IMG/VR virus record: IMGVR_UViG_3300021962_007571
Coordinates: 1-64,000 of that record
Direction: 5' to 3' (one strand)
Source: a virus
DNA length: 64,000 nucleotides
Shown here: positions 11,345-64,000 of the stretch, in pieces
Layout of the letters: each line of letters starts with the position of its first letter
Numbering within the stretch: the stretch's first letter is position 1
Made by a program: the position numbers and the translations under genes
The notes under the pieces: model-generated
Told to the model about the DNA's origin: nothing
The model's database searches: none
Seen by the model: the letters and a program-made list of their open reading frames with translations, nothing else

Positions 11345-11379
11345 AGTGTTGTTTTATTTATTATATAAATACCAACACA

Positions 11380-60606: not shown

Positions 60607-60861
60607 ATGGAAAACACTCAAGAAAACTTAAAAGAACCTATGGGGTTTCTTTTTGACAGTATAGCATATTACAATATTGAAGACTTGGAAAAGTTTGTAA
60701 CTGATATGACACCTGACCAAGCTCTTTACTGTGTCATACAAGCCTCAAAATCGGCTTACTCTAAAAACATTTTTGAATTAGAGGAATCTGAAGTTTTATC
60801 TAAAGCAATTAGAAAATTATCAATACCTAATGTCATTGAAGATGCACCTGTTGAAGAATAG
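60607..60861 (+). CDS. Hypothetical protein
   Basis: ORF with an ATG and A/T-rich leader, overlapping mgsA. Confidence 0.55.
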   Translation: MENTQENLKEPMGFLFDSIAYYNIEDLEKFVTDMTPDQALYCVIQASKSAYSKNIFELEESEVLSKAIRKLSIPNVIEDAPVEE

Positions 60862-61243
60862 AATTAAGATTGCGGTTATTGCCCACGATGGTAAAAAGGC
60901 TGATATGGTTTCATTTATTATGAAACGATTAGATTTTTTCACCTCTGAAAATGTTGAAGTTATTGCCACAGGTACTACAGGTAAACATTTGATTCACGCA
61001 GGGCTAAGTAAAGTCCATACTGTTTTAAGTGGTCCTATGGGTGGAGATGCTCAAATTGCGTCTATGATTACTGAGGGTAAGATTGATGCCGTAATATTTT
61101 TTATAGACCCTTTAGAAGTACACCCACACCAAGTAGACGTTAGTATGTTATTAAGAATTTGTAATGTCCACGACATTCCGCTAGCAACTAATTATAAAAC
61201 AGGTAAGATGGTTATTGATTGTTTGGAAAGTTTTCCAAAATAA
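60830..61243 (+). CDS. mgsA: Methylglyoxal synthase
   Basis: IAHDGKK, ATGTTG, SGPMGGDAQI, FFIDPL, HPHQVDV, PLATN; the true start may be 60842 or 60851. Confidence 0.95.
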   Translation: MSLKMHLLKNRIKIAVIAHDGKKADMVSFIMKRLDFFTSENVEVIATGTTGKHLIHAGLSKVHTVLSGPMGGDAQIASMITEGKIDAVIFFIDPLEVHPHQVDVSMLLRICNVHDIPLATNYKTGKMVIDCLESFPK

Positions 61244-61299: not shown

Positions 61300-61527
61300 A
61301 TGAAAAACTTAGTATTAGTAATCTTATCAGTAATCTTCTTATCTTCTTGCGCTACACAAATCCAACTTGCCGACGGACGAAAAGTTTCTAAAAGAGAACA
61401 CAAAAAAATGTTGGAGAAGGCTTGGAACGAAAGTTTTGGTAAAATGTCAGACCAAGAAAAAGACTTGATTTACAGTGTTCCTGTTATCGTAGACACTATG
61501 ACCGTGGTTCCAGATACTATTAAGTAG
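61300..61527 (+). CDS. Small lipoprotein
   Basis: MKNLVLVILSVIFLSS-C lipobox signal peptide. Confidence 0.75.
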   Translation: MKNLVLVILSVIFLSSCATQIQLADGRKVSKREHKKMLEKAWNESFGKMSDQEKDLIYSVPVIVDTMTVVPDTIK

Positions 61528-62992
61528 TTGGTTTTTGGAATATAATGTGTTGACCTGTTTTATACATTTTTCCATTATAACCAGCATCTTTTAATAAAGT
61601 GTAAGAACCATCAGTATTAGGAGTTTTACCAAAAAACCCACCATTAATAAATTTGTCAGTTGCAACTTTAACAGAATCGTTGTTAGTTGTATTAACAATA
61701 ATTGGTTTGATGACTATTGTAGACGTTTCAGTTTTTGGAATAACTTTAAGTTTATCCCCAGCAAACCATTCAGTATTTGTTGGGGTGTGTTTAAAGTATT
61801 TTAATACAATGTATGTTCCATCAGACTCTGGTTTTTTATTAATAATACCATTTTCAATATAGAAATTAGTGGTTTTTTCAGGATTTAACATTTCTAATTT
61901 TTTAACGTTACCTGTTAGTTTTGGTAAATTTTTATTTGAAGGACTGTCAACTTTAGTCGGTTGACCACTATCAACCCCTTTTTTCTTTAAATTACCACAA
62001 TTATCCAATTCCAATATTTTAATATCACCTGTAACACCTCTACCAATAGCGGGAGTACACTGATGAAATAAAACTGTATTACCTTTACTTATTCTAACTT
62101 CAGGTCTATCGGAGTGACAATCTGAAGGGGACAAACATTGTAAACTAATTACAATATCTTTACTTTCATTACCTATTATCGCCTTTGCTTTGGCATCATC
62201 CACAACTAATTTTCCACTTGTTCTATCACCACCAATTGGAGGATTTTTCTCTCCGTTATTTAAATTTGCCTTACCAATTGAAACTCCATTTAATTTAACA
62301 TCAAACAATGCAACATCACAATCGTGGTCCCCTCTACAACTAAATGGTCTACCATCAGTACCTATTGATGGTTGTGAAGATTTATCTTTTTTGTACATAA
62401 CCTCAACAGTTAGTCCTATAATACATTCCTCAGGTGGTTTAATAGCTAAAATTACTTTAACATATCTTTCTTTATCGTAATCAGGATTATTCTTATTACT
62501 TTGACCCTTAACATATTTAGTATTACCTAATATAAGTTCTGATGGTTCAAATATTGGCATTTCACTAATAACATTTTGAGATTTTAAACTTGAAAAATAT
62601 TGTTTTAAATAATTTTTCATAGTTTCGGCTCTTAATCTTGATAACTCTAAAGGTTTTAAAGATTTTTCTTCTGTAAAATCTTCGGACTTACCTGTTGACG
62701 GGTATTTTTCTCTATCATAATTTGTTACTTGAGATTCACTAGCGATAACTTTAACGTAAGTAATTCTACCTTTATTATTTCTTAAAAAATTTGCAGCTCC
62801 TTCTAAATCAGACTTTAATTTTTTTTCATCTTTCTTAGAAAACCCTGAATATTTCCCATCATCAAAAAATGATTGTCCTGACATAGTATATTCATTTTTA
62901 CCAGCAGGAGTTACTTGTTCAACAATATCATATAAAGATAATATTCCTATTCTCTCTTCTTCGGTTATTAATAATTTTCTTCTACAAGACAT
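61520..62992 (-). CDS. Protein with an OmpA-C-like domain and C-terminal repeats
   Basis: FFDDGK...VKVIASES...LSRLRAETMKNYL...ERYVKV; two DG(T/S)Y repeats; LITEEE leader. Confidence 0.5.
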   Translation of the reverse strand: MSCRRKLLITEEERIGILSLYDIVEQVTPAGKNEYTMSGQSFFDDGKYSGFSKKDEKKLKSDLEGAANFLRNNKGRITYVKVIASESQVTNYDREKYPSTGKSEDFTEEKSLKPLELSRLRAETMKNYLKQYFSSLKSQNVISEMPIFEPSELILGNTKYVKGQSNKNNPDYDKERYVKVILAIKPPEECIIGLTVEVMYKKDKSSQPSIGTDGRPFSCRGDHDCDVALFDVKLNGVSIGKANLNNGEKNPPIGGDRTSGKLVVDDAKAKAIIGNESKDIVISLQCLSPSDCHSDRPEVRISKGNTVLFHQCTPAIGRGVTGDIKILELDNCGNLKKKGVDSGQPTKVDSPSNKNLPKLTGNVKKLEMLNPEKTTNFYIENGIINKKPESDGTYIVLKYFKHTPTNTEWFAGDKLKVIPKTETSTIVIKPIIVNTTNNDSVKVATDKFINGGFFGKTPNTDGSYTLLKDAGYNGKMYKTGQHIIFQKPTT

Positions 62993-63037
62993 TCAAATAA
63001 TATTTATTATATAAATAGTTTAAATTTTTAAAATACT

Positions 63038-63069
63038 TTTGGCAGATTAAATAATCCGCCGTATATTTG
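63038..63069 (+). promoter_or_regulatory. Bacteroidota-type promoter for the small RNA
   Basis: TTTG (63038-41), 20-bp spacer, TATATTTG (63062-69). Confidence 0.75.
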
Positions 63070-63073
63070 TATT

Positions 63074-63186
63074 GTGATTGAGGGAAACGATTTAGATACA
63101 AATAAATCAATCATAGTTGTTGAGTCGAAAGAAGCTCAATTAGGACGGAGAAGGAACGATTTAGATACAACCCTCCGTCTTTTTTT
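63074..63186 (+). ncRNA. Candidate three-hairpin small RNA with a duplicated 16-nt loop
   Basis: Promoter, then stems GTGATTGA/TCAATCAT, TTGAGT/GCTCAA and AGGACGGAG/CTCCGTCTT plus a T tract; AACGATTTAGATACAA at 63086 and 63155. Confidence 0.7.
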
Positions 63187-63598
63187 ATACCCAAATAACT
63201 ATTTGGTCTTCACCAACTCTAAAAGGGTTTTCGTAGGATTCTCGGAATACTGTAACAATTAATAATTTCCACCCAACACCACCTTCATTAATGGCTTTGA
63301 TTGCAATCGCGATTTCTTTTTCAGGAGATTTAATTACAAAATAATCATTATTTTTAATGTCACCTATAGCGATTAATTCGGCAATTTTTTTACGACCAAG
63401 TTCAATAATATATTTAATTTCGGCGTTAGATATTTCTTTAGTATTATAATCTTCTATATCAGTTCTAGTTCTTCTATCATATGCGTGCGGACTTCTATCA
63501 AGTTCAAATGAATAGGTTACCTCAATCTTAGTGATTAAGCTACCTATCTTCTTCTCTAACAATAACTGTTCTCTGATTATTTGACGTAGTCTATTCAT
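63185..63598 (-). CDS. Putative RelE/BECR-fold ribonuclease-like protein
   Basis: SPHAYDRRTR near the N-terminus and LLIVTVFR near the C-terminus; MNRLRQIIREQLLLE leader. Confidence 0.4.
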   Translation of the reverse strand: MNRLRQIIREQLLLEKKIGSLITKIEVTYSFELDRSPHAYDRRTRTDIEDYNTKEISNAEIKYIIELGRKKIAELIAIGDIKNNDYFVIKSPEKEIAIAIKAINEGGVGWKLLIVTVFRESYENPFRVGEDQIVIWV

Positions 63599-63620
63599 AT
63601 TATATAAATACCTATAAAAT

Positions 63621-63651
63621 AAAAAAAGGGGACTAATAATAGTCCCCTTTT
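63621..63651 (-). terminator. Intrinsic terminator after the major capsid gene
   Basis: AAAAGGGGACTA-loop-TAGTCCCCTTTT, with a longer T tract on the minus strand. Confidence 0.85.
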
Positions 63652-63671: not shown

Positions 63672-64000
63672 TTATCTTAACTCGTTTAAGTCAAATGTTC
63701 TAACTCCATCAACTTGGATACGTCCGTAGAAACGGTTGTTAACCATTTTCTTAGCGTAACGTGTCATAATACCTTTGATAGGTGTAAAGTTGAATGGATT
63801 GTACATTGTAGGAGTTAATTGTAGAGGTACGTATGGAGCGTAGATGTAACCAGTGTCTAACAATGACGTTCCTTTGTGTCCCATTAACACAGTGTTTGGT
63901 GGGAAGTAAGGGTCACGGTAAACTTGGTATCTACCTGCTAATGTACCAACTCTTTCAATACCCATATTGTATTGGTCTTGCTCAGGAGCCGCGTTAGATA
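63672..64000 (-). CDS. Major capsid protein C-terminus (T4 gp23-like), truncated
   Basis: GTLAGRYQVYRDPY...GYIYAPYVPL...FTPIKGIMTRYA; the frame stays open to the window end. Confidence 0.95.
   Translation of the reverse strand, partial: SNAAPEQDQYNMGIERVGTLAGRYQVYRDPYFPPNTVLMGHKGTSLLDTGYIYAPYVPLQLTPTMYNPFNFTPIKGIMTRYAKKMVNNRFYGRIQVDGVRTFDLNELR

Follow-up and report, generated by a model that had tools for sequence, protein, structure and literature searches.

Apart from those of enterobacterial and Bacillus phages, very few phage regulatory RNAs are known to us, and for Bacteroidota phages there are almost none. The described systems closest to the locus reported here are the type III toxin-antitoxin systems, which include ToxIN, CptIN, TenpIN and AbiQ (review PMC5086642). 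Type III systems occur in phages too (PMC12283969), and phage PhiTE carries an antitoxin RNA alone, the pseudo-ToxI mimic (PMC3475682). Among phage enzymes, RegB of phage T4 recognises an 11-nt single-stranded site, GGAGRAYARAA (PMC1702504). Here we describe a predicted small RNA, RNA-A, and the convergent gene of a protein of 137 amino acids (aa), p137, both located in positions 1 to 64,000 of the IMG/VR virus record IMGVR_UViG_3300021962_007571. This whole stretch of 64,000 nucleotides, referred to as the window, is part of an 83.5-kb record with a CheckV completeness of ~26%. RNA-A belongs to an uncatalogued RNA family, absent from Rfam, that is carried by uncultured T4-like phages of Bacteroidota. 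Judging from its structure model, p137 is probably a RelE/BECR-like ribonuclease (RNase). We tentatively suggest, with a probability of about 40%, that RNA-A is a multivalent RNA partner, antidote or decoy of this enzyme.

The locus resembles type III systems in that a small endoribonuclease gene (here predicted) is combined with a structured, repetitive non-coding RNA and no protein antitoxin. The presence of the RNA alone in some phages is reminiscent of pseudo-ToxI. Unlike the type III toxins, p137 tentatively models as RelE/BECR-like and not as the ToxN/AbiQ fold. The layout differs as well: RNA-A lies downstream of the protein gene, on the opposite strand and with its own promoter, whereas type III antitoxins are tandem direct repeats that lie upstream on the same strand, with a terminator before the toxin. 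Moreover, the repeated unit of RNA-A is a 16-nt loop carried by differing stems, in contrast to a direct repeat of ~36 nt.

Three further kinds of RNA invite comparison. Some type I toxin-antitoxin pairs, such as txpA/RatA and bsrG/SR4 of Bacillus, have convergent RNAs that overlap at their 3' ends. RNA-A is likewise a convergent RNA gene whose 3' end meets the 3' end of a protein gene, and it has a U-turn motif in its loops. Unlike the type I toxins, p137 is no small membrane peptide; the overlap consists of the terminator only, and the body of RNA-A is conserved far beyond what antisense pairing needs. The CsrB/RsmZ sponge RNAs titrate CsrA with a repeated GGA loop motif, and they share with RNA-A the display of one conserved single-stranded motif on several hairpins, in variable copy number. 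The RNA-A motif is 13-19 nt long as opposed to GGA, it is phage-encoded, and we know of no CsrA-like partner for it. Lastly, the stable RNAs C and D of T4 are small RNAs of unknown function in the T4 tRNA gene cluster. RNA-A, too, lies within a tRNA array in one clade, and unlike RNAs C and D it has its own promoter and terminator.

The locus had been singled out in a sequence-only reading, which described a Bacteroidota-type promoter followed by three hairpins and a U tract, with one 16-mer occurring exactly twice and forming, in its second copy, the whole loop of hairpin 3 closed by GG/CC. Each of these elements is present where it was read, and the features of the locus are as follows.

63038-63041, plus strand: TTTG, the -33-like element of a Bacteroidota-type promoter, separated from the -7 box by 20 nt
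63062-63069, plus strand: -7 box TATATTTG (consensus TAnnTTTG), with a predicted start near 63074; invariant in alignment A1
63074-63186, plus strand: RNA-A, a predicted small RNA of ~113 nt, found with covariance model R1
63074-63114, plus strand: hairpin 1, arms 63074-63082 and 63106-63114, with a 23-nt loop
63086-63101, plus strand: loop motif copy 1, AACGATTTAGATACAA, exact, inside the loop of hairpin 1; AACRATTNAGATACAA in relatives
63119-63140, plus strand: hairpin 2, arms 63119-63125 and 63134-63140, with an A-rich loop without the motif
63143-63180, plus strand: hairpin 3, the intrinsic terminator stem, arms 63143-63150 and 63173-63180
63155-63170, plus strand: loop motif copy 2, AACGATTTAGATACAA, exact, the whole loop of hairpin 3
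63180-63186, plus strand: U tract of the terminator, seven T, with a 2-nt overlap with the p137 stop codon; conserved in alignments A1 and A2
63185-63598, minus strand: p137, a 137-aa phage-only protein, convergent with RNA-A

In the window, the loop of hairpin 3 is closed by G63153 and G63154 with C63171 and C63172, after an AA bulge. The 16-mer AACGATTTAGATACAA has just these two exact copies in the window, and allowing up to two mismatches retrieved the same two only from both strands of the 83.5-kb record. The promoter boxes are presumably those of Bacteroidota sigma-A promoters. The TAnnTTTG box stands at the same distance 5' of hairpin 1 in nearly all distinct family members; the TTTG element is conserved within two clades, that of the window and L008, but cannot be recognised in every family member.

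The fold of the single sequence is unremarkable (z = -1.8), and the case for the RNA comes from its relatives. Ten viral contigs reached via p137 carry the same RNA element. Five of the ten encode a p137 with 64% identity to that of the window; here the sequence is almost unchanged over the -7 box, the 20 bases that follow it and both copies of the motif, and hairpins 2 and 3 are altered on both sides of their stems. A pattern scan of IMG/VR with subsequent scripts yielded ~26 distinct versions of RNA-A in viral contigs, and 20 distinct three-hairpin versions make up alignment A2. RNAalifold recovered the same three hairpins from A2, with compensatory changes in 13 of 23 pairs. These fall on three of the eight pairs of hairpin 1 (96.9% of cells paired; TGATTGA/TCAATCA in the window becomes TAATTAAA/TTTAATTA in relatives), five of the seven pairs of hairpin 2 (97.1% of cells paired) and five of the eight pairs of hairpin 3. 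When pairs were counted on the named structure, 96.5% of the A2 cells were paired and 70 cells had changed on both sides, a result reached by none of 500 shuffles. In slid controls, where partners were shifted by 1-3 columns, 33-56% of cells paired and only 1-2 pairs covaried. The covariance model R1, built from A2, has its sole strong match in the window at 63068-63184 (128.7 bits, E 1e-23).

The loops behave differently from the stems. Motif copy 2 is invariant as AACGATTNAGATAC in all 20 aligned relatives, which extends to these relatives the earlier remark that the stems differ while the loops are identical. The expectation that a covariance model would show a conserved loop on covarying stems was thus borne out. 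Since the stems vary freely, selection appears to act on the loop sequence, and on the stems only for pairing. The constant part of the motif is a purine-rich lead followed by AACGAUUNAGAUACAA, and the core ACGAUUNAGAUAC is kept even in the most distant members. Its one variable position, N, was occupied by U, C or A in the sequences examined, and never by G. We take the UUNA within the motif to match YUNR, the signature of the U-turns in anticodon and antisense-RNA loops.

The number of motif loops per RNA ranges from one to four. The window has two, the version in L125 has three (hairpin 2 also displays the motif) and that in L036 has four, arranged as tandem units. The minimal one-loop RNAs (L085, L373, L380 and L365/L387/L393) are ~45 nt long and extend barely beyond a promoter and a terminator hairpin. 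Six viral contigs (L369, L397, L384, L399, L402 and L390) also hold minimal one-hairpin motif RNAs, with a -7 box of the TAAGTTTG type. In each of these six, a second promoter of the same type lies within ~60 nt and drives another short conserved sequence (AAATCGGAAATGTCCGAAACGTTC...), which suggests that such phages hold arrays of small RNA genes.

Searches of catalogued sequences gave no name to the family. Rfam 15, searched with 62800-63400 at E <= 10, returned no match over 63038-63186, and nine related loci matched tRNA families only. A blastn search of the RNA locus against 50,697 phage records found no match. In the literature on related topics we found no description of the RNA-A family, although no systematic search was aimed at the family itself. 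Three features fix the plus strand as the transcribed one: the promoter box, the U tract and the frequent G-U pairs, which would be C-A if the opposite strand were read. A 62-aa open reading frame (ORF) that overlaps the RNA (63074-63262) is unconserved: about half of the family has GTA in place of its GTG start, and a stop interrupts it after 15 codons in the L008 clade. The structure and conservation of RNA-A, its promoter and terminator, and its pairing with a protein gene are all observed directly in these sequences, and 63074-63186 is very probably a real, independently transcribed small RNA.

Public runs that contain the locus come from marine, estuary, lake and other freshwater samples. 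One lake metatranscriptome yielded a 106-nt contig of depth 2 that spans 63058-63163 and so begins 16 nt before the predicted start of RNA-A; such contigs give no strand or ends. Other metatranscriptome runs yielded pieces of p137, and one a relative's version of RNA-A. These contigs neither show nor refute a discrete RNA-A transcript.

In the first set of loci, RNA-A was convergent with p137 homologues of 41-100% identity, and the neighbour on its promoter side changed between clades. A protein-first search with a profile-derived pattern retrieved 68 p137 loci from IMG/VR. In all 68, the stop codon is immediately followed by a structured RNA that is encoded on the opposite strand and has its own promoter. 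This RNA is RNA-A, with one or two loops, in 48 loci and an unrelated RNA, RNA-B, in the other 20. RNA-B is ~140 nt long, strongly conserved and probably pseudoknotted, with no Rfam match. Its body is 78-98% identical among loci whose p137 proteins share 46-87%. No constant neighbouring gene for a protein antitoxin was found across the examined p137 loci.

In one clade (L327, L335, L341 and L345; e.g. L335:1600-1870), p137 and RNA-A lie within a phage tRNA array, with tRNAs for Cys, Lys, Phe, Val and Glu on one side and Leu-UAG, Arg-UCU and Leu-UAA on the other. There, RNA-A is oriented like the tRNAs and adjoins tRNA-Leu(UAG), and the pair is not beside the capsid gene. Since the pair stays together in the array, p137 and its RNA have moved as a unit.

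RNA-B was located at L325:1619-1759 on the minus strand, and likewise in L328, L329, L333, L336, L339, L340, L342, L349, L352 and L354. It follows more distant p137 homologues, in the same tail-to-tail slot. Its structure comprises a probable H-type pseudoknot (GGGT/ACCC crossed with CCGAG/CTCGG), three more hairpins and a terminator.

We found 92 homologues of p137 in metagenomes and phages, none of which has a Pfam domain. None occurred across 401 Bacteroidia genomes, and on present evidence p137 is phage-only. Residues H38, R42, N58, E60, W110, T116-V-F-R-E120 and Q132 are invariant in the alignment, and the His, Arg and Glu among them would suit an RNase. Searches of Pfam, PHROGs, PDB sequences and the ESM Atlas assigned p137 to no family and gave just a weak lead to DUF4258. 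An AlphaFold2 model of p137 was obtained with a predicted local distance difference test (pLDDT) score of 78 and a predicted template modelling (pTM) score of 0.64, for which Foldseek returned nothing at E <= 0.001. In an exhaustive comparison with VIA-align, the model matched the CdiA-CT of Yersinia kristensenii (5e3e_B) with Z 5.4 and many RelE, HigB, YoeB, YafQ, BrnT and ParE chains with Z 3.2-4.6 (RelE 4.5-4.6); colicin E5 was also listed. These scores (Z at most 5.5) are below the level that excludes chance, and the list is dominated by one superfamily of small RNase toxins. ToxN-type folds are absent from the list, which at such scores does not exclude ToxN.

T4 RegB reaches Z 3.3 against the p137 model. 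Like p137 it is a small phage-encoded protein, and the H-x-x-x-R of RegB lines up with H38 and R42. Sequence and profile similarity are not significant: hhalign of p137 against RegB gave a probability of 0.5% and E 0.13 over 22 columns, and within that non-significant stretch H38 and R42 of p137 fall on H48 and R52 of RegB. The RegB recognition site also differs from the loop motif of RNA-A. RegB is therefore the nearest phage enzyme in kind and is not demonstrably related to p137. We know of no partner RNA for RegB.

Two further observations concern p137. Its N-terminal helix (63542-63598, minus strand) contains a near-invariant LLLEK(R/K)IGQI, and L-x-E is the cleavage motif of the T4 prohead protease. 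Because of this L-x-E stretch and because the gene follows the capsid gene, p137 might be packaged in heads. The only p137 homologue in the GenBank phage collection is that of the uncultured phage LR745206.1 (L128:3300-3720), and the ORF that faces it looks like an S1 domain by eye. Ribosomal protein S1 is a required cofactor of T4 RegB (PMC1702504).

Given the tail-to-tail arrangement with a probable RNase gene, the likeliest role of RNA-A is that of an antidote or decoy of that enzyme. According to this proposal, host RNA polymerase would transcribe RNA-A from the Bacteroidota-type promoter, and the intrinsic terminator would end the RNA. Given the host-type promoter, RNA-A would probably appear as soon as infection begins. 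The loops of hairpins 1 and 3 display (R)GGnAACGAUUNAGAUACAA single-stranded, and each loop might act as a binding site, pseudo-substrate or slow substrate for one p137 molecule. RNA-A would in this way hold p137 inactive or steer it, like a type III RNA antitoxin, and in phages without p137 it would be an orphan antidote or decoy. The RNase activity of p137, its binding by the RNA and the timing of expression are what we infer here.

An RNA antitoxin for the convergent RNase-like gene was one of three functional ideas put forward by the sequence-only reading, and it is the best supported of the three, with gene arrangement as its basis. In its favour, all 68 IMG/VR homologues face an RNA gene, and the p137 model has a weak RelE-type likeness; RNA-A also occurs in phages without p137. 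Because p137 always faces an RNA in IMG/VR and the RNA is not always next to p137, the dependence is one-sided, which is the pattern expected of a toxin and its antidote. A p137 partner, at the probability given above, would explain more of the observations than any other reading: the invariance of the loops while the stems change freely, the differing number of copies, the absence of a protein antitoxin, the constant presence of an RNA despite the swap of its type and the one-sided dependence.

A more specific version, in which RNA-A is a multivalent RNA immunity factor against a RelE-like RNase made late, and perhaps delivered with the virion, by T4-like Bacteroidota phages, seems unlikely to us. 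Early RNA-A would then switch the enzyme off after its work, and copies in unrelated phages would be orphan immunity RNAs against rival phages. Such an RNA would be the counterpart of the immunity proteins of colicins and contact-dependent inhibition (CDI) toxins.

Several points weigh against a partnership of RNA-A with p137. The support for the pairing is all gene arrangement, and shared descent within one T4-like group could keep the two genes adjacent. That two unrelated RNAs share one slot could simply mean that small-RNA genes tend to settle there. Neither the layout nor the apparent toxin fold is that of any described type III system. The fold matches themselves are weak (Z at most 5.5, with no significant Foldseek match), and PDB sequences, Pfam and hhalign against RegB revealed no sequence-level tie between p137 and any RNase. 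The motif has a YUNR-like U-turn (UUNA), a feature typical of the loops in antisense RNAs. In the 635-kb phage LR745206, the p137 homologue (41% identical) faces a protein gene and no RNA. Conversely, a 31-kb record rated 100% complete holds a two-loop RNA-A without p137, and many of the minimal one-hairpin versions stand alone. The presence of RNA-A in phages that lack p137 implies that the RNA has, or can have, a role independent of p137.

A scan for one common form of the loop returned many copies of RNA-A that have a -7 box of their own and lie in retrieved loci without p137. In the complete 31-kb record, RNA-A lies among small early-type genes. A 385-kb record rated 95% complete (G210) contains RNA-A and, elsewhere, a marginal p137-like match that faces a protein gene and is perhaps no true homologue. 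Several partial records with RNA-A contained no p137 when searched over their whole length.

One motif hairpin was seen in a contig of a Flavobacteriaceae metagenome-assembled genome (G002:C11; L181/L252). It reads GAGAT-aggg-AACGATTTAGATACAA-ATCTC, at L252:1480-1560, in the 3' untranslated region of a 160-aa ORF, with a separate terminator downstream. No other convincing motif hairpin was seen in any bacterial genome bin, and this one may come from a prophage or a mis-binned phage contig.

The unrelated backgrounds of the p137-less copies (31 kb complete, 385 kb 95% complete) are what would be expected if RNA-A were a host-directed decoy or sponge that acts independently of p137. Its loops would soak up a host RNA-binding protein or a defence nuclease, for example an abortive-infection RNase or an anticodon nuclease, on the principle of pseudo-ToxI or the CsrB-type sponges. 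A loop number of one to four is as expected of a titrating RNA, and the host-type promoter suggests very early expression. Against this explanation, no candidate host partner was identified, and it leaves unexplained why every p137 homologue in IMG/VR faces a small-RNA gene. Nor did the motif turn up as something to be imitated in ~600 Bacteroidia genomes, where counts of the 16-mer were not above those of the reversed pattern. We consider a host decoy possible, though rather less than probable.

These counts come from matching the 16-mer and its complement against host-type genomes, as the sequence-only reading had proposed, and they showed neither enrichment nor arrays. Exact matches to the 16-mer numbered 11 across 401 Bacteroidia genomes, against ~20 for the reversed control, with never more than one copy per genome. 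With up to one mismatch, matches in 201 Flavobacteriaceae genomes were low and scattered, near the reversed control, and at most four per genome. Across 185,579 species the 16-mer was found in 120 stretches, which have the look of chance matches apart from the Flavobacteriaceae hairpin described above, with no p137 homologue nearby. Several of the 120 coincide with codons for ERFRYK in ABC-F ATPases (sense) or for LYLNR in MltG (antisense). Just one of the 120 has two copies, 915 nt apart and within a repeated gene.

The same searches bear on a second alternative, that RNA-A is a trans-acting antisense RNA whose U-turn (UUNA) loops seed pairing with sites resembling UUGUAUCUNAAUCGUU, either in mRNAs of the host or in phage mRNAs encoded outside the 83.5-kb fragment. 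A conserved single-stranded loop of 16 nt exceeds most protein-binding sites in length, and identical loops on unlike stems would suit rapid kissing contacts. The variable N, for which U, C and A are seen and G is not, is the first base after the predicted U-turn. Targets, however, did not emerge. The best trans duplexes within the 83.5-kb record, about a quarter of the genome, reach -18.5 kcal/mol and thus lie within the range of shuffled loops (-15.7 to -20.1). The complement of the motif is neither enriched nor conserved in the 201 Flavobacteriaceae and 401 Bacteroidia genomes, and the exact matches in bacteria fall within codons of conserved proteins, as chance predicts. An antisense role is improbable on present evidence.

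A purely local element would be a bidirectional terminator and a cis-antisense RNA on the 3' end of the late p137 transcript, without any sequence-specific function in trans. The RNA-A terminator indeed abuts and overlaps the p137 stop codon, some relatives have a U-rich stretch on the opposite strand after hairpin 3, and the strongest pairing in the record is, as a matter of course, with the opposite strand. Yet such an element would not explain 13-16 invariant loop bases in one to four loops on drifting stems, nor the stand-alone copies in other phages, which are convergent with no gene. We regard this explanation as very unlikely.

The two remaining ideas of the sequence-only reading found little support. 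One was that RNA-A mimics the helix-24 (790) loop of 16S rRNA and so titrates initiation factor 3 (IF3) or another factor that binds the 30S subunit. The likeness is real: the loop core AUU(N)AGAUAC matches AUUAGAUAC, the nine-base 790 loop, apart from one extra base, which is the variable one, and in one clade the terminator stem reads AAACAGG...CCTG, as in helix 24. It is no better than that of shuffled motifs, however, of which 1228 of 2000 aligned at least as well at some place in the 16S or 23S rRNA of one Flavobacterium. The stem likeness is limited to the one clade and absent from the window, and the flanks differ, CG..AA here versus GG..CC in 16S rRNA. This makes a 790 mimic highly improbable.

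The other idea was an RNA anti-CRISPR, that is, a solitary mimic of a CRISPR repeat. It arose from the end of motif copy 2, ...ATACAAC, which may resemble the ends of some Bacteroidota repeats. The ...ACAAC end is unconserved in the family: the final C varies and, in one clade, so does ACAA. No host CRISPR array with ACGATTNAGATAC in its repeat was present in the genomes searched, in which each sampled Bacteroidia genome had at most one exact copy of the motif, and array-like clusters of the motif were absent from the 201 and 401 genomes and from the 120 stretches alike. Of all the explanations, we give this one the least credence.

Whatever its function, RNA-A represents a widespread and uncatalogued RNA family whose members have between one and four loops that display one fixed sequence of 13-16 nt. 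In large phages from lakes and estuaries, the RNA is consistently accompanied by a phage-only, RNase-like gene. If the RNA controls p137, the pair would be a new architecture of protein toxin and RNA antidote, in which the toxin has a RelE-like fold and the RNA is convergent and has a promoter of its own. Phages would then also have a new means of timing host shut-off or of fighting one another. If a host factor is titrated instead, RNA-A would be a new RNA-based tool against the host or its defences.

The surroundings of the locus are those of a T4-like phage, with the C-terminal end of the Gp23 major capsid protein at 63672-63998 (minus strand) and a G+C content of 31%. Two minus-strand genes flank the RNA, a 490-aa ORF at 61520-62992 and p137 at 63185-63598, neither of which has a family in Pfam or PHROG. 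A scan for tRNAs and transfer-messenger RNAs (tmRNAs) across the window found none.

A strong intrinsic terminator with a 12-bp stem lies at 63624-63651 (minus strand), between the capsid gene and p137. Since this terminator directly follows the capsid gene, p137 is probably not simply co-transcribed with gp23. The 13-mer TATTATATAAATA occurs four times on the plus strand of the window, at 11364, 12884, 63010 and 63603. The copy at 63603 abuts the ATG of p137 and that at 63010 is 15 nt from the ATG of the 490-aa gene, both genes being on the minus strand. Read on the minus strand, the 13-mer may be a phage promoter or start-site signal. We had considered TATAAATA at 63010 as a late promoter of RNA-A. 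The surrounding 13-mer recurs directly before minus-strand start codons, and TATAAATA is therefore more likely part of the divergent gene. A few genes from RNA-A, at 60830-61243 on the plus strand, lies another gene for a 137-aa protein, which has an MGS-like domain (PF02142, E 3e-17) and is 77-99% identical across related phages.

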